NCBI GenBank assembly: GCA_964016885.1
Contig: CAXHJY010001345.1
Coordinates: 1 to 34,537 of the forward strand
Source of the DNA: Eledone cirrhosa
Lineage: Eukaryota
DNA: 34,537 nucleotides
Direction: 5' to 3'
The notes under the pieces are model-generated. The model had not been told where the DNA came from. It saw only the letters and a list, made by a program, of their open reading frames with translations, and searched no databases. Positions 5,097 to 23,994 of this stretch are shown piece by piece; position 1 is the stretch's first letter, and every line of letters starts with the position of its first letter. Both the position numbers and the translations under genes were made by a program.

Positions 5097-5263
5097 GTGG
5101 TAGAGAATGTAAATCAGCAGGAGGACTCAAGCGACATGCAAAAGTACACGAACTCCAACCACAGCCGACTATTCCCAGTAAATGTTTTGGTTGCCGACTC
5201 TGTGCAAGACATTTTGGATCATTGGCTGGGCTAAAAAGCCACATTCGATCGCAGCACTGTTAG
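5096..5263 (+). mobile_element. 3' coding end of an RTE LINE: C-terminal C2H2 zinc fingers (one partial, one complete)
   Basis: [18 protein letters not shown]...[23 protein letters not shown]. It is homologous to [23 protein letters not shown] in the RTE derivative at 31081-31158 (-). Confidence 0.7.
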
Positions 5264-5309: not shown

Positions 5310-5611
5310 GCTTATGTGCGTGCGTGTGTGTGTATATATATATGAATATGTATATTATTATTGTTGTTGTCGTTATTATTATTATTATTATTATTATTGA
5401 ATGCCATGGTTGACGGAGGCTCGGCTCTGTAAGGTATAGTAATTTTTAACCGTTAAAACAATTGTAAATTGTTTAAAACTTGAACCAAATTGTTGATAAA
5501 GACACCCTCCTCCTCGTGAGAGGGGTCTTTCTGTCCGTTATTTGGCCCTTCGGGGTTAAATAGCCAGTTATTGGGGTTTTGTACCCAAAATTTCATTTTA
5601 AACAAAAAAAC

Positions 5612-7706
5612 ATGGCTACCAAAAAAAAAAAAATTTCATACGTCACTCCCACTCATTCCGTCTTCTTCTTCCTCAATCATCACTACAGGAGAGAGAAGAT
5701 TGTCTCTCTCCCTCCCTTCTTTAAATGTGTCTCTCTCCCTACCTTCTCTTTCGCAAGCGACGAAAGAAAAGAAAAGTCTCGTGCAAAGCGTGCAAGGTTT
5801 CTCCACGACGACAGCGACGAAACAGGTGTGCGGGAAATACGAAAACCCAGTTCATTCGTCTGACGTCAGGAATAATAGCAGTAGCAGCCGTAATAACAAC
5901 AGCAACAGTGACAATGAAAACAACAGTAGCAGCCGCAACAGCATCACCAGCAGCATAAACAACAACAGCATTAGCAGCAGCAACACCAACAACAACCACA
6001 GCAACAGCGGCGGAGGCAGTAGTCGTAGTACCTGCAGCAACAACAAAAGTACCAGCAGCTCTGACGACAACAACAACAGCAGAGAAAAACCAATCTCATT
6101 TGCAGGTATTGCGAAAAACCTGGAAACAATCCTCATAACAAATGAGGAATTAGAGGAAGCGAAGAAGATGGTGACAAAGAACGGACACCGAGCAATCTGC
6201 AAGGCAGCGAAAAATTTTTTCGAAACCCAAGAGCACTGTACGGTCACGTACCGTACAGTAAGTACAAAATCCCGTAGGGTGGAAAGAGCCACAGAGGCCC
6301 AAATACAAAAAGCCTTGGGGCCTGTGTGGCAGAGGAAAACGCACATCACCCGAGGCAAAAAATACGCCACCGTAGACGTACTTTTTGCCACACCCCAGGA
6401 GGCAAAGGCCCAATCAGTAGTGACCCTAAGGAGCGAGGAAATGGTGTTGGTGCCCTCCTACTGCGGGCAAAAAATTGTGAGGGTCAAACTGACCCACGTC
6501 CCCCCCGGAATGACCCCTTCTTGGCTGGCCGCGTCTGTCCTCGTCGGAATCGAGGACAAAACAACTGTACTGCAAGTACAGAAAAAAGTAAGAGAAGATT
6601 GGGTCGGCTCCTCCATTGAGATGCTAATCCAAACCAACCAGGAGTGCATCGAAGCTATCCCGGATGTGATAGACTTCGATAACGGCACTCAACTGCCCAT
6701 AAGTGTTGAGGGCAAACGCCCGAAATGCTTTCGCTGTGGATCGAAGACTCACCTCAGGGCCTTCTGCAACGAGAAGACCCTGAGAAAGGAGAAAACCCCC
6801 CTCCTCCCGAATCCGGTTCCACGGCTACCAGCAACAGGACAAGCGGCAACCAGGAACGATAGGTCCGTGGCACCCATACCCACTCCACGGAAATCAAAGA
6901 CAGCAGCAGCAGTGGAAATATTAACAACAACAACAGCAATACCAAATGCAGCTGCAACAGAGACTCCAGTGCAAACATCACCAACAACAACAAGTGAAAG
7001 AGTGGAGCTGGTACCCCTCCCCGACCTTACAGAATCAGACATGGAGTGTGAGGTGGGAGAGGGATGGCAAAAGGTCTCAAGAAGGCACAAACGCAGAAGC
7101 AGCGCATCGTCGCCTTTGAAAAGGGAGGAAAGAAATGAGAAAAGGGTAAAGTCTACTGCAAAGAGACCCACAGCAGCAACACCACCAACACCATCACCAC
7201 CCACACCAGCACCACCATCACCACCGGCGACAACCCCACCGCCAACAACACCTTCAACACCACCACCACAAGCACCAACATCGCAAACACAACAACAAAA
7301 CACACACACCCAGCAACAACGACAAGAAAATAGCAGAACCACACCCCACCCCCAGAAAAACAAATGCACGGCAATAAACACACACAACAAGAAACTAATG
7401 ACTTACATAATTGAACACACAGACATTTCACAACAGGACTACATAATACCAGCACCAATCAAAACGCCAACTAACATAAGACTGCTAAAAATAGCACAGA
7501 AACAATACACAAACATTAAAACGAAATTCCCCAACGCAGTTGGTGATTTCAGGGACCTAGGAGGAACCATTAATCGAAGAGTATATTCAGACATTCTCTT
7601 AGAAGAGCCGACGACCAGCCGAAGGGACGATTCAACGGTCCCTTCACCAGACGATCAAGTGAAAAGGGATGTAAAAACCATCCCTCCTCTACCAAAAATA
7701 CGGTAA
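5612..7706 (+). CDS. ORF1 gag-like nucleic-acid-binding protein, copy 1. As assembled, it is frameshifted just after the ATG.
   Basis: Contains the SFAGIAK motif, an RRM-like region and the CCHC knuckle CFRCGSKTHLRAFC (6726-6767), then a P/T-rich region. ATG 5612 is followed by A13 where copy 2 has AAAAAGAAA (+4 nt), which puts the ATG out of frame with the open frame 5571-7706. Confidence 0.8.
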
Positions 7707-7741
7707 GTGGTCTTTCCCATCTTTTCCACTCTATTTTAAAC

Positions 7742-10700
7742 ATGACCTCACTCAGAATAGGCAGCATAAATGCGCGTGGCTTGGGGTCGTCATGGAAGCA
7801 GGGTCACCTGCTCAACGACCTCAGGTCACTAAACATAGATGTAGTGGCCATCAGCGAGACCAGAATCTCCGAAGCACGGGCCTTCGCACCGATCTTCGGC
7901 GGCTACGATGTGTACGCATCTCCCAGCCGTCCTGGATCGGGTGGAGGAGTTGCTGTGCTTTTTCGGAGAGGTTTGGATCTCGCCATACGGGCCATCTTCC
8001 TGGACCCAGAGGGTAAGCTGGTGGTGCTGGACGTGACCAGCGGAGACGGGCAAGCTTTCAGGCTAGTGGCCGTCTATGCCCCGACAGGAGCAGGGCGGCC
8101 TGATTTCTTCCGGCGTCTGGAGACCTTTCTTGGAACGTCGCGCTCTTTAGTGTTAGTGGGCGACTGGAACGGGATCTTAGATGCACGCTGGGACTGTGTG
8201 GGATTAGCGGATAGGGGTGGAGGGTGCAAGAGCCTCACCAACCTGCTCAGGCGTTTTGAACTGTCTGACAGGTACCGATTGGATTTCCCGAATGTGCCAA
8301 TGTGGACTTGGACAAACCGCATAGGGTCATCCAGATCATATCTAGATAGAGTATTTTGTAGGGAAATAGATAGGTCTAGCATAGGCTGTCCACAATTCAA
8401 GATAGTCAGCTACACGGACCACAAATTCGTGATCTGCGTGCTTGACTTAGATAGGCTTCATAGACGAGGACCCGGCTACTGGAAGCTAAACGCGTCCTTA
8501 CCAGCGCGCAAGGCCTACAGAGACCGGATTAGCGAACTAGTTAAGCGGGCGTTGACGGGGGCCATCGTCAACAACAAGTGGTGGTTTGCTCTGAAAAGAG
8601 CGATTAGAATAGAATCGATTAGGTTTAGTAAGGCTTTAGCAATAGAGAAAAATAGAGCAGAGGGAGAACTAGTTAGAAAATTAGACGAGGCGCTTAGCAA
8701 AGGCATTGCGACCGACGTGCTTGCGGCGAAATTGGCCCTTGACCAATTCTTCAATGCAAAGCACGAAGGCTGCGTTGTCAGAGCTAGGGTGCGTGCTCTC
8801 AGACACGAGGGGACGAAAGCCGTTCAATGGGCCCGAGTGGCGGAGGCGCGTCGTGGCAACAAAGCCACGATCCGGTCTTTGGTGGACCACGACGGGCGCA
8901 TGCTACTCGATCCCGGGCAAATGTGTGAAGCTTTTCAGCGACACTTCGCTCAGCTGTTCGGGGGCAGCGGGGGGCCGGGTAGAGGGATGGACTTTAGTGT
9001 CTACCTCGACGGGCTGCCGCGGCTCTCGGCCACTGAGGCGAGGTGTTGCGAAAAGCCGATAACAGCCGCTGAAGTACGGGAGGCAATGACTGGCTGCACA
9101 AGGGGTAAATCGCCTGGTTTGGATGGTCTGCCCTATGAACTTTACGTACAGATGCCAGACTTGTTCGGAGGCCTCTTGGCGGACGTCTACTGCAACTGGC
9201 AACAGAACGGGAGAATTCCCAGTTCTGTGAGCCGAGGAGCGGTGGCACTGCTGAGAAAGGATCCGAACAAGGGGGATAACATAGACAATTTCCGGCCCAT
9301 AACTCTGCTAAACACAGAGTTTAAGATTTTGGCCAAGGTGCTAGCAAAGAGGTTGGCGCTTGTCGTTGGTGGTCTAGTGGGAGAGGCGCAGACATGCGCC
9401 ATTCCCGACAGATCCATCCACGACAACCTCCACCTCATGCGATACATCGTAGAGAGGGTAGCTAGGGAACCTGGCACGGGTGGGTCCTTGATCAATTTAG
9501 ATCAGTCGAAAGCTTTCGATAGGGTCGACCATCGTTACCTAGCGGCAGTCCTGAGGGCGGCTGGCTTTGGGCCCGTCTTCAGAGGCTGGATCGCTGCCAT
9601 GCACAGCGACATCTGCTCTGTGGTGAGAGTGAACGGTCACCTGTCGGAACCGTTCAACATCATGCGCTCGGTCCGCCAAGGATGTCCCCTCTCGTCCCTC
9701 TTGTACGTATTGACTCTCGAGCCATTACTGCACAAACTGGAGACGTTGAGGGGAGTCCCGCGCGAACTAGGATGCGGAAGATCCGTGTCAGCATATGCGG
9801 ACGATGTCACCGTAGTGGTGTCGAACGCCAAACACATCGAGGCGATCGGCACTACACTAAGAGAATACGAAGCGGTGACAGGAGCAATGATCAACCAGGA
9901 AAAGTCAGTGGGCCTGCAGCTCGGCACCTGGAGAGGCAGGTCCATGCCGTCCAACAGCGTCGTCGGGCGCTGGACGGACGGACCGGTTAAATTGCTAGGG
10001 GTCTGGTTCGGTCCGGACCTCCAGACGGACAAAAACTGGGACGAGGTGACGAGCAGGGTGGCTTCTCTCACCCAGAAATGGGCGGAGAGGAAGCTATCCC
10101 TGAAAGGTCGAGCGGAGGTGGCTAACGCGTACATCGCGTCTGTCATCTGCTACCGCCTAACCGTCGTACCTTGTCCTAAGCCTCGCCTGACTGCGCTGGA
10201 GCGTTTGCTCTTTCGCTTTTTGTGGATGGGACGTGCTCCGATGGTCAGGCGGTCCATCTGTTGTCAACACCCGCTACGTGGAGGGCTGGGCATGCCGTGG
10301 CTGATGATGCGCAGGCACGCGCTCAGGCTACGACATCTCCACCTCTTCCTCGACGGTGATCAGGTGTGGTCGCCGTTTGCTAGACGCGTTTTTCCCCAGC
10401 TCGTTTCCTTGACGGAGCTGCAGTCCTGGGTCAAGCGAAGACCGAGAGGGAGCGCCTGGAGACTGGAATGTCTTCAGGCGCTCACAGCCCTCGACCAATC
10501 GGGCAATGTGATCGGTGGAAACTCCACCTCAGCGTTCTATAGAGGATTAGTGGAGGGGAAGAGCGACGACGTACTTGGGGAAACTCTAGGCGTCGACGAA
10601 AATCAACTAGCCAATCTCTTCGGAAGAACTTTCGGGCCAGGGCCTATGGACAACTTCCAGAAATCTCTGGCCTGGCAGTGCTACCGAGGAGCCTTGCCAG

Positions 10701-11161
10701 TTCGGGATAAACTCTACAGGCATGGAGGTGCCGTCAGCCGGGCATGTCCGAGATGCGCGCAGGGCGACGAAACCGTCCTGCACGCACTCGTCCAGTGTCC
10801 GAAAATTGCTGACTTGTGGGTTTATGTCGAACACCTGCTGTCGCGTTTAGGACGGATCCAGCTATCATCTGAGTCTATCGTGAGGATTGCCCCGCCCTCC
10901 TCCTTTAGCCGGGAAGGGCAGGCAGTTTTTATCTGTCTGGTGGCCATGGCGAAAGAGATAGTATGGTGGACACGTTTGAAAGGGCTGAAGACGAGCACTT
11001 ACCTCTTCGGTGATGCTCTGATTGACTTTTTCAAATTTCATTTGAAAAGGAAAATCAGAGTAGAGAAGGAAGTGCTCTCTTCCCAGCATTTTGTTGAAAG
11101 ATGGGTGAGAGAAGCAAGAATGGCCCGAGTGAATGGGCCGACTCTGAGTATATATCTGTAA
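7742..11161 (+). CDS. ORF2: AP-like endonuclease, reverse transcriptase and C-terminal CCHC finger (1139 aa)
   Basis: Endonuclease motifs SINARGL, ISETR, VGDWN, SYLDRVF and TDH. Tx1/L1-type GYWKLN. RT motifs KSPGLDG, FRPITLLN, DQSKAFDRVDH, QGCPLS and YADD. Finger CPRC...ETVLHALVQC. Confidence 0.97.
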   Translation: MTSLRIGSINARGLGSSWKQGHLLNDLRSLNIDVVAISETRISEARAFAPIFGGYDVYASPSRPGSGGGVAVLFRRGLDLAIRAIFLDPEGKLVVLDVTSGDGQAFRLVAVYAPTGAGRPDFFRRLETFLGTSRSLVLVGDWNGILDARWDCVGLADRGGGCKSLTNLLRRFELSDRYRLDFPNVPMWTWTNRIGSSRSYLDRVFCREIDRSSIGCPQFKIVSYTDHKFVICVLDLDRLHRRGPGYWKLNASLPARKAYRDRISELVKRALTGAIVNNKWWFALKRAIRIESIRFSKALAIEKNRAEGELVRKLDEALSKGIATDVLAAKLALDQFFNAKHEGCVVRARVRALRHEGTKAVQWARVAEARRGNKATIRSLVDHDGRMLLDPGQMCEAFQRHFAQLFGGSGGPGRGMDFSVYLDGLPRLSATEARCCEKPITAAEVREAMTGCTRGKSPGLDGLPYELYVQMPDLFGGLLADVYCNWQQNGRIPSSVSRGAVALLRKDPNKGDNIDNFRPITLLNTEFKILAKVLAKRLALVVGGLVGEAQTCAIPDRSIHDNLHLMRYIVERVAREPGTGGSLINLDQSKAFDRVDHRYLAAVLRAAGFGPVFRGWIAAMHSDICSVVRVNGHLSEPFNIMRSVRQGCPLSSLLYVLTLEPLLHKLETLRGVPRELGCGRSVSAYADDVTVVVSNAKHIEAIGTTLREYEAVTGAMINQEKSVGLQLGTWRGRSMPSNSVVGRWTDGPVKLLGVWFGPDLQTDKNWDEVTSRVASLTQKWAERKLSLKGRAEVANAYIASVICYRLTVVPCPKPRLTALERLLFRFLWMGRAPMVRRSICCQHPLRGGLGMPWLMMRRHALRLRHLHLFLDGDQVWSPFARRVFPQLVSLTELQSWVKRRPRGSAWRLECLQALTALDQSGNVIGGNSTSAFYRGLVEGKSDDVLGETLGVDENQLANLFGRTFGPGPMDNFQKSLAWQCYRGALPVRDKLYRHGGAVSRACPRCAQGDETVLHALVQCPKIADLWVYVEHLLSRLGRIQLSSESIVRIAPPSSFSREGQAVFICLVAMAKEIVWWTRLKGLKTSTYLFGDALIDFFKFHLKRKIRVEKEVLSSQHFVERWVREARMARVNGPTLSIYL

Positions 11162-11421
11162 ACTAAAGGTGGAAAACTGGGAGAGGGCACTTGCCTTGGT
11201 GGTCAGGGTCATTGTGGCTTTTTACTGGGCTTTCTCCACAAATGTCCCTCCGAAGTCTCCCCCCTATTGGGGAATATTTCATTGTTATTTTCATTGTTAT
11301 TTTTGTTACATCCTCTGTTTTTGTTTTTTTACACGCAGAAATGCCCATTTGTACCGTCCTGCATTGTCCTGCACTGTCCTTAATGTCTACTTTATGTAAA
11401 CCCTTGTGGTTAATAAAGAAA

Positions 11422-11474
<53 letters not shown>

Positions 11475-11687
11475 GAATGCCATGGTTGACGGAGGCTCGG
11501 CTCTGTAAGGTATAGTAATTTTTAACCGTTAAAACAATTGTAAATTGTTTAAAACTTGAACCAAATTGTTGATAAAGACACCCTCCTCCTCGTGAGAGGG
11601 GTCTTTCTGTCCGTTATTTGGCCCTTCGGGGTTAAATAACCAGTTATTGGGGTTTTGTACCCAAAATTTCATTTTAAACAAAAAAAC

Positions 11688-13784
11688 ATGGCTACCAAAA
11701 AGAAATTTCATACGTCACTCCCACTCATTCCGTCTTCTTCTTCCTCAATCATCACTACAGCAGAGAGAAGATTGTCTCTCTCCCTCCCTTCTTTAAATGT
11801 GTCTCTCTCCCTCCCTTCTCTTTCGCAAGCAACGAAAGAAAAGAAAAGTCTCGTGCAAAGCGTGCAAGGTTTCTCCACGACGACGACGACAGCGACGAAA
11901 CAGGTGTGCGGGAAATACGAAAACCCAGTTCATTCGTCTGACGTCAGGAATAATAGCAGTAGCAGCCGTAATAACAACAGCAACAGTGACAATGAAAACA
12001 ACAGTAGCAGCCGCAACAGCATCAACAGCAACATAAACAACAACAGCATTAGCAGCAGCAACACCAACAACAACCACAGCAACAGCGGCGGAGGCAGTAG
12101 TCGTAGTACCTGCAGCAACAACAAAAGTACCAGCAGCTCTGACGACAACAACAACAGCAGAGAAAAACCAATCTCATTTGCAGGTATTGCGAAAAACCTG
12201 GAAACAATCCTCATAACAAATGAGGAATTAGAGGAAGCGAAGAAGATGGTGACAAAGAACGGACACCGAGCAATCTGCAAGGCAGCGAAAAATTTTTTCG
12301 AAACCCAAGAGCACTGTACGGTCACGTACCGTACAGTAAGTACAAAATCCCGTAGGGTGGAAAGAGCCACAGAGGCCCAAATACAAAAAGCCTTGGGGTC
12401 TGTGTGGCAGAGGAAAACGCACATCACCCGAGGCAAAAAATACGCCACCGTAGACGTACTTTTTGCCACACCCCAGGAGGCAAAGGCCCAATCAGTAGTG
12501 ACCCTAAGGAGCGAGGAAATGGTGTTGGTGCCCTCCTACTGCGGGCAAAAAATTGTGAGGGTCAAACTGACCCACGTCCCCCCCGGAATGACCCCTTCTT
12601 GGCTGGCCGCGTCTGTCCTCGTCGGAATCGAGGACAAAACAACTGTACTGCAAGTACAGAAAAAAGTAAGAGAAGATTGGGTCGGCTCCTCCATTGAGAT
12701 GCTAATCCAAACCAACCAGGAGTGCATCGAAGCTATCCCGGATGTGATAGACTTCGATAACGGCACTCAACTGCCCATAAGTGTTGAGGGCAAACGCCCG
12801 AAATGCTTTCGCTGTGGATCGAAGACTCACCTCAGGGCCTTCTGCAACGAGAAGACCCTGAGAAAGGAGAAAACCCCCCTCCTCCCGAATCCGGTTCCAC
12901 GGCTACCAGCAACAGGACAAGCGGCAACCAGGAACGATAGGTCCGTGGCACCCATACCCACTCCACGGAAATCAAAGACAGCAGCAGCAGTGGAAATATT
13001 AACAACAACAACAGCAATACCAAATGCAGCTGCAACAGAGACTCCAGTGCAAACATCACCAACAACAACAAGTGAAAGAGTGGAGCTGGTACCCCTCCCC
13101 GACCTTACAGAATCAGACATGGAGTGTGAGGTGGGAGAGGGATGGCAAAAGGTCTCAAGAAGGCACAAACGCAGAAGCAGCGCATCGTCGCCTTTGAAAA
13201 GGGAGGAAAGAAATGAGAAAAGGGTAAAGTCTACTGCAAAGAGACCCACAGCAGCAACACCACCAACACCATCACCACCCACACCAGCACCACCATCACC
13301 ACCGGCGACAACCCCACCGCCAACAACACCTTCAACACCACCACCACAAGCACCAACATCGCAAACACAACAACAAAACACACACACCCAGCAACAACGA
13401 CAAGAAAATAGCAGAACCACACCCCACCCCCAGAAAAACAAATGCACGGCAATAAACACACACAACAAGAAACTAATGACTTACATAATTGAACACACAG
13501 ACATTTCACAACAGGACTACATAATACCAGCACCAATCAAAACGCCAACTAACATAAGACTGCTAAAAATAGCACAGAAACAATACACAAACATTAAAAC
13601 GAAATTCCCCAACGCAGTTGGTGATTTCAGGGACCTAGGAGGAACCATTAATCGAAGAGTATATTCAGACATTCTCTTAGAAGAGCCGACGACCAGCCGA
13701 AGGGACGATTCAACGGTCCCTTCACCAGACGATCAAGTGAAAAGGGATGTAAAAACCATCCCTCCTCTACCAAAAATACGGTAA
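11688..13784 (+). CDS. ORF1 gag-like protein, copy 2 (698 aa from ATG, MATKKKFHTSL...)
   Basis: In-frame ATG at 11688 in the context AACATGG. N/S-rich N-terminus, CCHC knuckle, GWQKVSRRHKRR basic motif and P/T/Q-rich tail. Confidence 0.9.
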   Translation: MATKKKFHTSLPLIPSSSSSIITTAERRLSLSLPSLNVSLSLPSLSQATKEKKSLVQSVQGFSTTTTTATKQVCGKYENPVHSSDVRNNSSSSRNNNSNSDNENNSSSRNSINSNINNNSISSSNTNNNHSNSGGGSSRSTCSNNKSTSSSDDNNNSREKPISFAGIAKNLETILITNEELEEAKKMVTKNGHRAICKAAKNFFETQEHCTVTYRTVSTKSRRVERATEAQIQKALGSVWQRKTHITRGKKYATVDVLFATPQEAKAQSVVTLRSEEMVLVPSYCGQKIVRVKLTHVPPGMTPSWLAASVLVGIEDKTTVLQVQKKVREDWVGSSIEMLIQTNQECIEAIPDVIDFDNGTQLPISVEGKRPKCFRCGSKTHLRAFCNEKTLRKEKTPLLPNPVPRLPATGQAATRNDRSVAPIPTPRKSKTAAAVEILTTTTAIPNAAATETPVQTSPTTTSERVELVPLPDLTESDMECEVGEGWQKVSRRHKRRSSASSPLKREERNEKRVKSTAKRPTAATPPTPSPPTPAPPSPPATTPPPTTPSTPPPQAPTSQTQQQNTHTQQQRQENSRTTPHPQKNKCTAINTHNKKLMTYIIEHTDISQQDYIIPAPIKTPTNIRLLKIAQKQYTNIKTKFPNAVGDFRDLGGTINRRVYSDILLEEPTTSRRDDSTVPSPDDQVKRDVKTIPPLPKIR

Positions 13785-13819
13785 GTGGTCTTTCCCATCT
13801 TTTCCACTCTATTTTAAAC

Positions 13820-16800
13820 ATGACCTCACTCAGAATAGGCAGCATAAATGCGCGTGGCTTGGGGTCGTCATGGAAGCAGGGTCACCTGCTCAACGACCTC
13901 AGGTCACTAAACATAGATGTAGTGGCCATCAGCGAGACCAGAATCTCCGAAGCACGGGCCTTCGCACCGATCTTCGGCGGCTACGATGTGTACGCATCTC
14001 CCAGCCGTCCTGGATCGGGTGGAGGAGTTGCTGTGCTTTTTCGGAGAGGTTTGGATCTCGCCATACGGGCCATCTTCCTGGACCCAGAGGGTAAGCTGGT
14101 GGTGCTGGACGTGACCAGCGGAGACGGGCAAGCTTTCAGGCTAGTGGCCGTCTATGCCCCGACAGGAGCAGGGCGGCCTGATTTCTTCCGGCGTCTGGAG
14201 ACCTTTCTTGGAACGTCGCGCTCTTTAGTGTTAGTGGGCGACTGGAACGGGATCTTAGATGCACGCTGGGACTGTGTGGGATTAGCGGATAGGGGTGGAG
14301 GGTGCAAGAGCCTCACCAACCTGCTCAGGCGTTTTGAACTGTCTGACAGGTACCGATTGGATTTCCCGAATGTGCCAATGTGGACTTGGACAAACCGCAT
14401 AGGGTCATCCAGATCATATCTAGATAGAGTATTTTGTAGGGAAATAGATAGGTCTAGCATAGGCTGTCCACAATTCAAGATAGTCAGCTACACGGACCAC
14501 AAATTCGTGATCTGTGTGCTTGACTTAGATAGGCTTCATAGACGAGGACCCGGCTACTGGAAGCTAAACGCGTCCTTACCAGCGCGCAAGGCCTACAGAG
14601 ACCGGATTAGCGAACTAGTTAAGCGGGCGTTGACGGGGGCCATCGTCAACAACAAGTGGTGGTTTGCTCTGAAAAGAGCGATTAGAATAGAATCGATTAG
14701 GTTTAGTAAGGCTTTAGCAATAGAGAAAAATAGAGCAGAGGGAGAACTAGTTAGAAAATTAGACGAGGCGCTTAGCAAAGGCATTGCGACCGACGTGCTT
14801 GCGGCGAAATTGGCCCTTGACCAATTCTTCAATGCAAAGCACGAAGGCTGCGTTGTCAGAGCTAGGGTGCGTGCTCTCAGACACGAGGGGACGAAAGCCG
14901 TTCAATGGGCCCGAGTGGCGGAGGCGCGTCGTGGCAACAAAGCCACGATCCGGTCTTTGGTGGACCACGACGGGCGCATGCTACTCGATCCCGGGCAAAT
15001 GTGTGAAGCTTTTCAGCGACACTTCGCTCAGCTGTTCGGGGGCAGCGGGGGGCCGGGTAGAGGGATGGACTTTAGTGTCTACCTCGACGGACTGCCGCGG
15101 CTCTCGGCCACTGAGGCGAGGTGTTGCGAAAAGCCGATAACAGCCGCTGAAGTACGGGAGGCAATGACTGGCTGCACAAGGGGTAAATCGCCTGGTTTGG
15201 ATGGTCTGCCCTATGAACTTTACGTACAGATGCCAGACTTGTTCGGAGGCCTCTTGGCGGACGTCTACTGCAACTGGCAACAGAACGGGAGAATTCCCAG
15301 TTCTGTGAGCCGAGGAGCGGTGGCACTGCTGAGAAAGGATCCGAACAAGGGGGATAACATAGACAATTTCCGGCCCATAACTCTGCTAAACACAGAGTTT
15401 AAGATTTTGGCCAAGGTGCTAGCAAAGAGGTTGGCGCTTGTCGTTGGTGGTCTGGTGGGAGAGGCGCAGACATGCGCCATTCCCGACAGATCCATCCACG
15501 ACAACCTCCACCTCATGCGATACATCGTAGAGAGGGTAGCTAGGGAACCTGGCACGGGTGGGTCCTTGATCAATTTAGATCAGTCGAAAGCTTTCGATAG
15601 GGTCGACCATCGTTACCTAGCGGCAGTCCTGAGGGCGGCTGGCTTTGGGCCCGTCTTCAGAGGCTGGATCGCTGCCATGCACAGCGACATCTGCTCTGTG
15701 GTGAGAGTGAACGGTCACCTGTCGGAACCGTTCAACATCATGCGCTCGGTCCGCCAAGGATGTCCCCTCTCGTCCCTCTTGTACGTATTGACTCTCGAGC
15801 CATTACTGCACAAACTGGAGACGTTGAGGGGAGTCCCGCGCGAACTAGGATGCGGAAGATCCGTGTCAGCATATGCGGACGATGTCACCGTAGTGGTGTC
15901 GAACGCCAAACACATCGAGGCGATCGGCACTACACTAAGAGAATACGAAGCGGTGACAGGAGCAATGATCAACCAGGAAAAGTCAGTGGGCCTGCAGCTC
16001 GGCACCTGGAGAGGCAGGTCCATGCCGTCCAACAGCGTCGTCGGGCGCTGGACGGACGGACCGGTTAAATTGCTAGGGGTCTGGTTCGGTCCGGACCTCC
16101 AGACGGACAAAAACTGGGACGAGGTGACGAGCAGGGTGGCTTCTCTCACCCAGAAATGGGCGGAGAGGAAGCTATCCCTGAAAGGTCGAGCGGAGGTGGC
16201 TAACGCGTACATCGCGTCTGTCATCTGCTACCGCCTAACCGTCGTACCTTGTCCTAAGCCTCGCCTGACTGCGCTGGAGCGTTTGCTCTTTCGCTTTTTG
16301 TGGAAGGGACGTGCTCCGATGGTCAGGCGGTCCATCTGTTGTCAACACCCGCTACGTGGAGGGCTGGGCATGCCGTGGCTGATGATGCGCAGGCACGCGC
16401 TCAGGCTACGACATCTCCACCTCTTCCTCGACGGTGATCAGGTGTGGTCGCCGTTTGCTAGACGCGTTTTTCCCCAGCTCGTTTCCTTGACGGAGCTGCA
16501 GTCCTGGGTCAAGCGAAGACCGAGAGGGAGCGCCTGGAGACTGGAATGTCTTCAGGCGCTCACAGCCCTCGACCAATCGGGCAATGTGATCGGTGGAAAC
16601 TCCACCTCGGCGTTCTATAGAGGATTAGTGGAGGGGAAGAGCGACGACGTACTTGGGGAAACTCTAGGCGTCGACGAAAATCAACTAGCCAATCTCTTCG
16701 GAAGAACCTTCGGGCCAGGGCCTATGGACAACTTCCAGAAATCTCTGGCCTGGCAGTGCTACCGAGGAGCCTTGCCAGTTCGGGATAAACTCTACAGGCA

Positions 16801-17239
16801 TGGAGGTGCCGTCAGCCGGGCATGTCCGAGATGCGCGCAGGGCGACGAAACCGTCCTGCACGCACTCGTCCAGTGTCCGAAAATTGCTGACTTGTGGGTT
16901 TATGTCGAACACCTGCTGTCGCGTTTAGGACGGATCCAGCTATCATCTGAGTCTATCGTGAGGATTGCCCCGCCCTCCTCCTTTAGCCGGGAAGGGCAGG
17001 CAGTTTTTATCTGTCTGGTGGCCATGGCGAAAGAGATAGTATGGTGGACACGTTTGAAAGGGCTGAAGACGAGCACTTACCTCTTCGGTGATGCTCTGAT
17101 TGACTTTTTCAAATTTCATTTGAAAAGGAAAATCAGAGTAGAGAAGGAAGTGCTCTCTTCCCAGCATTTTGTTGAAAGATGGGTGAGAGAAGCAAGAATG
17201 GCCCGAGTGAATGGGCCGACTCTGAGTATATATCTGTAA
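13820..17239 (+). CDS. ORF2: AP-like endonuclease, reverse transcriptase and CCHC finger (1139 aa), copy 2
   Basis: Same motifs as copy 1. The only amino-acid difference I see is FLWKGR versus FLWMGR. Confidence 0.97.
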   Translation: MTSLRIGSINARGLGSSWKQGHLLNDLRSLNIDVVAISETRISEARAFAPIFGGYDVYASPSRPGSGGGVAVLFRRGLDLAIRAIFLDPEGKLVVLDVTSGDGQAFRLVAVYAPTGAGRPDFFRRLETFLGTSRSLVLVGDWNGILDARWDCVGLADRGGGCKSLTNLLRRFELSDRYRLDFPNVPMWTWTNRIGSSRSYLDRVFCREIDRSSIGCPQFKIVSYTDHKFVICVLDLDRLHRRGPGYWKLNASLPARKAYRDRISELVKRALTGAIVNNKWWFALKRAIRIESIRFSKALAIEKNRAEGELVRKLDEALSKGIATDVLAAKLALDQFFNAKHEGCVVRARVRALRHEGTKAVQWARVAEARRGNKATIRSLVDHDGRMLLDPGQMCEAFQRHFAQLFGGSGGPGRGMDFSVYLDGLPRLSATEARCCEKPITAAEVREAMTGCTRGKSPGLDGLPYELYVQMPDLFGGLLADVYCNWQQNGRIPSSVSRGAVALLRKDPNKGDNIDNFRPITLLNTEFKILAKVLAKRLALVVGGLVGEAQTCAIPDRSIHDNLHLMRYIVERVAREPGTGGSLINLDQSKAFDRVDHRYLAAVLRAAGFGPVFRGWIAAMHSDICSVVRVNGHLSEPFNIMRSVRQGCPLSSLLYVLTLEPLLHKLETLRGVPRELGCGRSVSAYADDVTVVVSNAKHIEAIGTTLREYEAVTGAMINQEKSVGLQLGTWRGRSMPSNSVVGRWTDGPVKLLGVWFGPDLQTDKNWDEVTSRVASLTQKWAERKLSLKGRAEVANAYIASVICYRLTVVPCPKPRLTALERLLFRFLWKGRAPMVRRSICCQHPLRGGLGMPWLMMRRHALRLRHLHLFLDGDQVWSPFARRVFPQLVSLTELQSWVKRRPRGSAWRLECLQALTALDQSGNVIGGNSTSAFYRGLVEGKSDDVLGETLGVDENQLANLFGRTFGPGPMDNFQKSLAWQCYRGALPVRDKLYRHGGAVSRACPRCAQGDETVLHALVQCPKIADLWVYVEHLLSRLGRIQLSSESIVRIAPPSSFSREGQAVFICLVAMAKEIVWWTRLKGLKTSTYLFGDALIDFFKFHLKRKIRVEKEVLSSQHFVERWVREARMARVNGPTLSIYL

Positions 17240-17500
17240 ACTAAAGGTGGAAAACTGGGAGAGGGCACTTGCCTTGGTGGTCAGGGTCATTGTGGCTTTT
17301 TACTGGGCTTTCTCCACAAATGTTCCTCCGAAGTCTCCCCCCTATTGGGGAATTTTTCATTGTTATTTTCATTGTTATTTTTGTTACATCCTCTATTTTT
17401 GTTTTTTTTACACGCAGAAATGCCCATTTGTACCGTCCTGCATTGTCCTGCACTGTCCTTAATGTCTACTTTATGTAAACCCTTGTGGTTAATAAAGAAA

Positions 17501-17589
<89 letters not shown>

Positions 17590-22094: not shown

Positions 22095-22350
22095 CATCTT
22101 CTTCTTCGCCGTCCACTTATTCCGGGAAAGGTGAGGGTGAGGGCGGGGAGTTGGCAGAGTCCTCAAACACTCCTTCCAGTTATAAGCAACGCTCTCCAAC
22201 TGATCCGACCGGATCCTCAAGAAGGACCAGCCAAGCTCAAGGACTTTATCCAACCATCTTACTCGGGGTCAACCTCTGGGTCCCCTATTGGTTGGTTTGC
22301 CCATAAAATCTGACCAGCGATTCTTTCCTGACACACACATGTCCTGGAAC
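22095..22350 (-). mobile_element. Degenerate 3' end of an RTE (Rex3/Expander-like) LINE with a (GAA)n tail
   Basis: The minus strand reads, with frameshifts and stops, QERIAGQILWA...RGPRG*PRVRWLDKVLELGWSFLRI. It ends in GAAGAAGAAGATG. Confidence 0.75.
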
Positions 22351-23994
22351 ATGTCCATAGTATCGGAGCTGTGATCTTTTAATTCAGAGAAGTAGCAGCT
22401 CTACCTGGAGTGACTCTGATCTCTGAGCTACACATTCTTTCAGAGACATTCTAACCACATGTCCATAGTATCGGAGCTGTGATCTTTTAATTCTGAGAAG
22501 TAGCAGCTCTACCTAGAGTGACTCTGATCTCTGAGCTACACATTCTTTCCTGAGACATTCTAACCAAATGTCCATAGTATCAGAGCTGTGATCTTTTAAT
22601 TCAGAGAAGTAGCAGCTCTACCTGGAGTGACTCTGATCTCTGAGCTACACATTCTTTCCTGAGACATTCTAACCACATATCAATAGTATCAGAGCTGTGA
22701 TATCTCAATTTAGAGAAGTAGCAGCTCTACCTGGAGTGACTCTGATCTCTGAGCTACACATTCTTTCCTGAGACATTCTAACCACATGTCCATAGTATCA
22801 GAGATGTGATCTTTTAATTCAGAGAAGTAGCAGCTCTACCTAGAGTGACTCTGATCTCTGAGCTACACATTCTTTCCCGAGACATTCTAACCACATATCC
22901 ATAGTATCAGAGCTGTGATCTTTTAATTCAGAGAAGTAGCAGCTCTACCTAGAGTGACTCTCTGTTCTCTGAGCTACACATTCTTTCCTGAGACATTCTA
23001 ACCACATGTCCATAGTATCAGAGCTGTGATCTTTTAATTCAGAGAAGTAGCAGCTCTACCTGGAGTGACTCTGATCTCTGAGCTACACATTCTTTCCTGA
23101 GACATTCTAACCACATGTCCATAGTATCAGAGCTGTGATCTTTTAATTCAGAGAAGTAGCAGCTCTACCTAGAGTGACTCTGATCTCTGAGCTACACATT
23201 CTTTCCTGAGACATTCTAACCAAATGTCCATAGTATCAGAGCTGTGATCTTTTAATTCAGAGAAGTAGCAGCTCTACCTGGAGTGACTCTGATCTCTGAG
23301 CTACACATTCTTTCCTGAGACATTCTAACCACATATCCATAGTATCTGAGCTGTGATATTTTAATTCAGAGAAGTAGCAGCTCTACCTGGAGTGACTCTG
23401 ATCTCTGAGCTACACATTCTTTCAGAGACATTCTAACCACATGTCCATAGTATCAGAGCTGTGATCTTTTAATTCAGAGAAGTAGCAGCTCTACCTGGAG
23501 TGACTCTCTGATCTCTGAGCTACACATTCTTTCCTGAGACATTCTAACCACATATCCATAGTATCAGAGCTGTGATCTTTCAATTCAGAGAAGTAGCAGC
23601 TCTACCTGGAGTGACTCTGATCTCTGAGCTACACATTCTTTCCTGAGACATTCTAACCACATATCCATAGTATCTGAGCTGTGATCTTTTAATTCAGAGA
23701 AGTAGCAGCTCTACCTGGAGTGATTCTCTGATCTCTGAACTACACATTCTTTCCTGAGACATTGTAACCACATATCCATAGTATCGGAGCTGTGATCTTT
23801 TAATTCTGAGAAGTAGCAGCTCTACCTAGAGTGACTCTCTGTTCTCTGAGCTACACATTCTTTCCTGAGACATTCTAACCAAATGTCCATAGTATCAGAG
23901 CTGTGATATCTCAATTTAGAGAAGTAGCAGCTCTACCTGGAGTGACTCTCTGATCTCTGAGCTACACATTCTTTCCTGAGACATTCTATCCACA
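22351..23994 (-). repeat. Tandem satellite of 15 x 108-111 bp units derived from RTE ORF sequence
   Basis: Unit starts are at about 22351, 22459, 22568, 22677, 22786, 22895, 23006, 23115, 23224, 23333, 23441, 23552, 23661, 23772 and 23883. A minus-strand composite of the unit variants translates as SSEIRESLQVELLLL*IKRSQLRYYGHVVRMSQER. Confidence 0.92.

Follow-up and report, generated by a model that had tools for sequence, protein, structure and literature searches.

A young LINE family specific for (ATT)n microsatellites in the octopod Eledone cirrhosa, with stacked and occasionally chimeric copies

Introduction

The window analysed here, a stretch of 34,537 nucleotides, is one whole small contig of the 3.0-Gb genome of Eledone cirrhosa. 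It contains two 6.0-kb LINEs arranged head to tail, with runs of ATT units before, between and after them. The question raised by the locus is whether these runs are the DNA into which the element inserts or a product of the element itself. A preliminary description of the window had proposed both, namely that a Tx1 family targets (ATT)n and writes a new ATT tail, so that copies stack and may seed microsatellites. Flanks sampled across the genome give good support to a real (ATT)n-specific Tx1-type family, and they indicate that the 'tail' is likely to be copied target DNA.

The two copies of the window

The features of the window are as follows.

5373 to 5398, forward strand: left ATT run, TT+(ATT)8, 26 nt, read as the target or target-site duplication
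5399 to 11423, forward strand: LINE copy 1, 6025 nt
5612 to 7706, forward strand: ORF1 of copy 1, with a frameshift in the A run at 5621-5633; 512 aa open from 6168
7742 to 11161, forward strand: ORF2 of copy 1, 1139 aa, open
11412 to 11417, forward strand: AATAAA near the 3' end of copy 1
11424 to 11474, forward strand: (ATT)17 junction run, common to copies 1 and 2
11475 to 17502, forward strand: LINE copy 2, 6028 nt, ORF1 and ORF2 both open
11688 to 13784, forward strand: ORF1 of copy 2, 698 aa, with low-complexity ends and one CX2CX4HX4C knuckle
13820 to 17239, forward strand: ORF2 of copy 2, 1139 aa, with APE endonuclease, reverse transcriptase and zf-RVT
17491 to 17496, forward strand: AATAAA near the 3' end of copy 2
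17503 to 17589, forward strand: right run, (ATT)29, with a T run after it up to 17611

The preliminary description was accurate in its reading of the termini. Both copies begin at the same G, directly after (ATT)8 and (ATT)17, respectively, and the 26-nt ATT run upstream of copy 1 is present. Both end in AATAAA, separated by six bases from a pure ATT run of 17 or 29 units, and poly-A is absent from the 3' ends of the window copies. The two copies differ in 28 of 6031 alignment columns, 17 of these being substitutions and the rest due to a few indels. ORF1 and ORF2 are both open in copy 2 only, although the ORF1 frameshift of copy 1 could be a homopolymer read error.

Three other features of the window are of a more incidental nature. 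Just upstream of copy 1, at 5097-5263, is a short open reading frame that encodes two C2H2-like zinc fingers and might be the 3' end of a further LINE. Positions 22349-23994 hold a tandem array whose 109-bp unit is repeated 15 times with 94% match. Several hairpins are apparent by eye in the 5' UTR (11565-11680). An Rfam search of the junction and the 5' UTR gave no ribozyme or other credible family, only six weak matches below the gathering threshold.

Coding regions and classification

ORF2 matches the Pfam families Exo_endo_phos (an N-terminal APE endonuclease), RVT_1 and zf-RVT (a C-terminal zinc-binding region), which is the domain order of L1/Tx1-type elements. Its best matches in the PDB are the human L1 endonuclease and ORF2p, with 141 bits compared to 82 for R2. 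ORF1 has no match in Pfam. Its core resembles clusters of RNA-binding and CCHC proteins, and the look-alikes in the Atlas (zf-CCHC and ZCCHC3-type) have feature scores of 0.89-0.93, which serve as a lead only. The names returned by a cluster look-up of the element were uninformative.

The closest named protein is from Argonauta hians, with 73% identity across the reverse transcriptase (RT) region, as would suit an octopod host, and the identity to fish proteins named TX1 or pol-like is 34-39%. The pol-like entries Q76IM4 and Q76IM5 presumably come from the Kibi/Koshi study. Two quick RT trees were calculated, from which P0236 and L323 were dropped as too short. The element falls into a starred clade of its own, together with the Argonauta protein and unnamed proteins. 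In the second tree, rooted at the midpoint, this clade joins the fish TX1-named and pol-like proteins with an SH-aLRT value of 95, and the U2-inserted Keno-like elements form the next group outside; the first tree left the Tx1 node open. The ORF2 domains and the RT tree support the Tx1-type identity that had been proposed, but both trees are composed of sequences other than L1 proper and Repbase references, so membership in Tx1 is likely rather than demonstrated.

Metagenome scans gave no close relatives: one had no hits and the other had 68 distant loci, and an (ATT)4 run is absent from all 11 longest-match loci that were checked. Two loci in these data (L295:4675-4885 and L301:5815-5977) are Tx1-type elements ending in U2 snRNA sequence, like Keno.

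The family in the genome

The LINE family is young and present in high copy number. The genome contains 1,606 exact matches to the 5' 26-mer of the element and 6,477 to its 3' 28-mer. Both ORFs are open in 53 of the 112 full-length copies examined, and the median pairwise difference among the 44 youngest of the first 64 full-length copies is 0.85%. Sister subfamilies (L065, L067, L097, L098, L109) have ORF2 or only the last 200 nt in common with the window subfamily, whereas their 5' UTR and ORF1 are different. Sister subfamilies with other 5' halves likewise begin after ATT runs. Their left runs, often 14-24 units, look longer than those of the window subfamily.

Target specificity

Genome-wide, 1,542 of the 1,606 exact 5' ends (96%) are preceded by (ATT)4 and begin with the G. 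They do not abut random sequence, and the proposal of an (ATT)n-specific family is supported. The 13-mer (ATT)4+G occurs 53,856 times in the 3.0 Gb, which at the 35% GC of the window amounts to about 0.005% of G positions, the proportion expected by chance. The flanks sampled lie for the most part within the first 122 Mb of contig C1 and were drawn from the matches listed. The left run has at least four units in 85 of 90 sampled full-length 5' ends, with a median of 8 units and an interquartile range of 6-10.

Copies truncated at the 5' end are informative here because they lack any RNA leader. Sixty were listed; removal of four junctions that were mis-split or belonged to other families, and of 28 that reflected internal deletions or rearrangements, left 28. 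Twelve of these 28 adjoin at least four ATT units, so the runs are genuine targets. In the available part of the paper that defines microsatellite-specific Tx1 families, the target is required in over 20% of flanks (PMC4494074); a single microsatellite occupies the junctions of the present family. It is hardly credible that insertion is nonspecific and that copies merely survive in ATT runs. About one third of the truncated copies do have no ATT context at their 5' junction, as such a process would predict, but the figure of 96% against a background of about 0.005%, in copies that are mostly less than 1.5% diverged, largely refutes it.

A left run of at least four units is missing in 16 of 28 truncated copies compared to 5 of 90 full-length ones (Fisher p 1.5e-8). 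Nicking at ATT alone leaves this gap unexplained, and the proportions of long left runs, 94% and 43%, leave room for pairing at the 5' end. Specificity might even come mainly from RNA-DNA pairing, with AUU units from the source locus at both ends of the transcript and an endonuclease that needs just ATTAT. Pairing would favour long runs and precise full-length 5' joins. A SINE with a related 3' end, described below, uses bare ATTAT sites, and R1 transcripts with upstream target sequence yield precise junctions, according to the part of that study available (PMC2718515). Nevertheless, the leaderless truncated copies still land in long runs far above chance, and interruptions of a copy's left run can be found again in its tail, showing that those runs are local DNA. 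We regard pairing as the main source of specificity as rather unlikely, although it is compatible with the explanation that we prefer.

Origin of the 3' ATT runs

Every one of the 74 3' ends sampled has one or more ATT units after it; in 57 there are at least four, and in none is there poly-A. This is what would be expected if an RNA ending in (AUU)n, or slippage of the reverse transcriptase, wrote a new long tail, by which the target would be recreated and microsatellites could be seeded. The lengths of the runs point in the same direction. The right runs have a median of 14 units in 84 full-length copies. The tails of Dong-like elements without a Tx1-type neighbour (22 of 30 sites) are shorter, with a median of 6 units, and the junction run of the window (17 units) is longer than its left run (8). 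To account for these lengths, the element must either prefer long runs or add units.

Junctions at targets that are not pure ATT can tell the two origins apart. At 6 of 105 full-length junction pairs (L070, L164, L173, L174, L268, L269) the tail repeats 24-59 nt of an interrupted left run. In these six the ATT units ahead of the interruption are never more numerous in the tail than in the left flank, and the tails of L268 and L269 have zero there. Three truncated copies have duplications of 7-17 nt of imperfect targets. Added ATT units were not demonstrable at any of these nine junctions (6 full-length, 3 truncated). Copies at poor sites (L037/L063, L044, L057, L088, L019) end in just 1-3 units; L063 and L088 have a single right-hand unit, so that there is no duplication there.

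The ATT 'tail' is thus likely to be copied target DNA rather than made by the element, and the claim that a tail recreates the target is not supported, since at nine of nine such junctions the tail duplicates the left flank. Seeding fares no better, given the 1-3 units of poor-site copies, and was not seen in any junction sampled. An element-made tail is unlikely, although some addition of units could occur within pure runs. What insertion likely does is to renew targets by splitting and duplicating a run, rather than to seed one.

Stacking and neighbouring elements

Stacking of copies head to tail, as seen in the window, is common. By motif-based classes, 35 of 90 sampled 5' ends lie directly after a 3' end of the same group, as had been anticipated, and 9 of 90 after a SINE end. 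The 74 3' ends, classified in the same way, are followed in 16 cases by a full-length start and in 26 by an oppositely oriented Dong-like 3' end. As ATT runs of at least six units number 44,770 or more in the genome (a partial count), stacking looks enriched a few fold, an estimate that is rough because ends of other subfamilies are left uncounted. At one locus (L121:6062) two family members stand tail to tail, the ATT run passing straight into an AAT run. Many ATT microsatellites of the genome are flanked by mobile elements and would be poor markers for that reason.

Dong/R4-like LINEs (L032, L036, L050, L181-L210) share these ATT runs and lie on the other strand. We take these neighbours to be Dong elements from their motifs, not from a tree. 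One of their 3' 28-mers has 2,425 exact matches, and 8 of 30 such ends adjoin a Tx1-type 3' end.

A SINE-like element of about 170 nt (L270-L294), with 58,894 exact 3' ends in the genome, may be a partner of the Tx1-type LINE, judging by sequence resemblance. Its 3' end is similar to Tx1-type 3' ends over about 25-30 nt, and 0-33 of 500 shuffles are as good, depending on the pair. The SINE tails have a median of 2 units. Matches of 11-19 nt between tail and upstream DNA, mostly starting with ATTAT, are present in 13 of 25 loci, although several of the 11-nt matches are low-complexity and may be due to chance.

Chimeric neighbours

Thirty neighbour pairs were compared. Seventeen of them were chosen through a pure 7-unit junction, after nine of 26 such junctions had been dropped; in these nine, and in L263, one member is not a full-length copy of the window subfamily. 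Twenty-three pairs, including that of the window, have no long shared 5' tract, two are near-identical (0 and 2 differences) and five are chimeric. The 28 pairs other than the near-identical ones differ at 17-174 sites.

In the five chimeric pairs, which belong to three arrays, the 5' 0.6-2.9 kb of the upstream copy matches its downstream neighbour. Over its first 1288 nt, L268 is identical to its downstream neighbour, L267, at all compared positions, and the two have 20 rare variants in common; beyond this they differ at 147 positions, whereas the 3' part of L268 is only 6 changes away from an unlinked copy. Tracts of this level occur in 5 of 30 neighbour pairs compared to 8 of 6,207 non-neighbour pairs. 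A duplicated interrupted run coincides with four of the five chimeric pairs; two of the interrupted-run cases, L070 and L164, have no significant 5' tract.

Two accounts of the tandems were considered and rejected. The window pair did not arise by tandem duplication: it has 17 substitutions, the first at position 165, and closer copies exist elsewhere. Neither are most tandems chimeras, as none of the 17 pairs with a pure 7-unit junction has a chimeric tract, although two are near-identical. In one four-copy array (L245-L248) the first and third copies (L245/L247) differ at 2 sites, which suggests duplication of a two-copy unit.

This array, the two near-identical pairs among the 30 and the fact that the window is a whole small contig are in keeping with a later origin of tandems and chimeras, either through unequal exchange or gene conversion among inserted copies that are flanked by ATT, or in the assembly as mosaics. 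However, the other 28 pairs have their 17-174 differences, and the long shared tracts are 5'-sided: those of at least 1000 nt are at the 5' end in five pairs and at the 3' end in two, the latter including the identical pair. Furthermore, the copied flank of L268 and L269 starts right at the last base of the element, leaving almost no homology to start a conversion. Exchange or mosaic assembly is a distinctly improbable source of the tandems and chimeras, and joining of the new copy to the resident one during insertion is the preferred reading.

A model of insertion

The genome displays a specific target, duplicated at junctions, together with stacked copies and chimeric neighbours. We consider it probable, with good but not full confidence, that these are the work of a young, high-copy Tx1-type LINE specific for (ATT)n, whose endonuclease nicks the AAT strand and primes there, whose tail is target DNA and whose chimeras arise by a homology join. 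The nick would be made at ATTAT, usually near the left edge of the run, and would prime reverse transcription. A second cut about 11-21 nt downstream would duplicate up to about 7 units, so that each insertion would turn one run into two, both of which could be hit again. In a stacking event the new copy would land just upstream of a resident, with RNA from another source being reverse-transcribed. The cDNA would sometimes join inside the resident by homology, copying the run and the 5' 0.6-2.9 kb of the resident. Such a join would make a truncated insertion full-length.

A broader reading can be offered only tentatively. An undescribed octopod Tx1 lineage may have evolved (ATT)n targeting independently of Dong, may complete its 5' ends from residents, and may provide the machinery that also drives the SINE with its roughly 59,000 or more copies. 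New copies would then often land just upstream of residents because each insertion duplicates the target beside itself, residents would rescue truncated insertions, and 5' halves would be swapped between subfamilies.

Comparison with known systems

Microsatellite-specific Tx1 families are known for (TC)n, (TTC)n, (TTCC)n and (TTTC)n, as far as the available part of the survey extends (PMC4494074). Kibi and Koshi of fish and the crocodilian (TTCC)n and (TTTC)n families are, in the parts of the papers available, likewise Tx1-type LINEs with an APE endonuclease and a microsatellite target (PMC4494074, PMC3812793). Their targets are pyrimidine repeats, whereas the present LINE uses (ATT)n and forms a separate starred lineage; neither its target nor its placement is that of Kibi and Koshi. 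With it, the microsatellite-specific Tx1 elements gain a trinucleotide target and a lineage from the invertebrates, of which many copies are intact.

The literature searched, outside Repbase Reports and Dfam, contained no ATT-specific Tx1 family, nor is one described in the available portions of PMC9115989, PMC4758252, PMC5753468, PMC1950540 and PMC11702581. The likelihood that a curator has already noted the (ATT)n target is about one in three. For Octopus vulgaris, an annotation lists beside Dong-R4 a set of 13 L1-Tx1 families of recent activity, with 421 insertions; the word 'target' is absent from the main text of that paper, in its available part, and the likeness to the present LINE is one of description (PMC13282606).

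Dong, of the R4 clade, is specific for TAA repeats, according to the available part of PMC3812793, and so shares the microsatellite of the present LINE. Dong-like elements adjoin 26 of the 74 sampled 3' ends, on the opposite strand. Dong/R4 elements have a single ORF and a C-terminal restriction-like endonuclease, a region also present in the Dong-like neighbours, whereas the present LINE has two ORFs and an N-terminal APE domain. APE and restriction-like endonucleases thus appear to use one repeat on opposite strands, which permits a direct comparison of target recognition.

The R1 arrays in the 28S genes of Drosophila are enlarged when new copies insert into the duplicated target at the 5' end of the resident (PMC2718515), and SINEU-3 forms tandems around a duplicated target (PMC4494074), in what is available of both papers. 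Growth into the duplication at the resident's 5' end is common to these systems and the present one. The differences are that the target here is a dispersed microsatellite and that some upstream copies share the 5' 0.6-2.9 kb of the resident, a feature which the available parts of those two papers do not describe.

These chimeric tandems are the most interesting addition to the finding of an (ATT)n-specific family, as they provide genomic evidence on the completion of the 5' junction, a step that is unsettled for LINEs. In cultured human cells, chimeric L1 reportedly forms with endogenous L1 during insertion, as a rare by-product, and the cDNA is likewise said to join the resident by homology, duplicating the DNA between. 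The difference is that in Eledone cirrhosa targeting puts new copies beside residents, and 5 of 30 neighbour pairs are chimeric.
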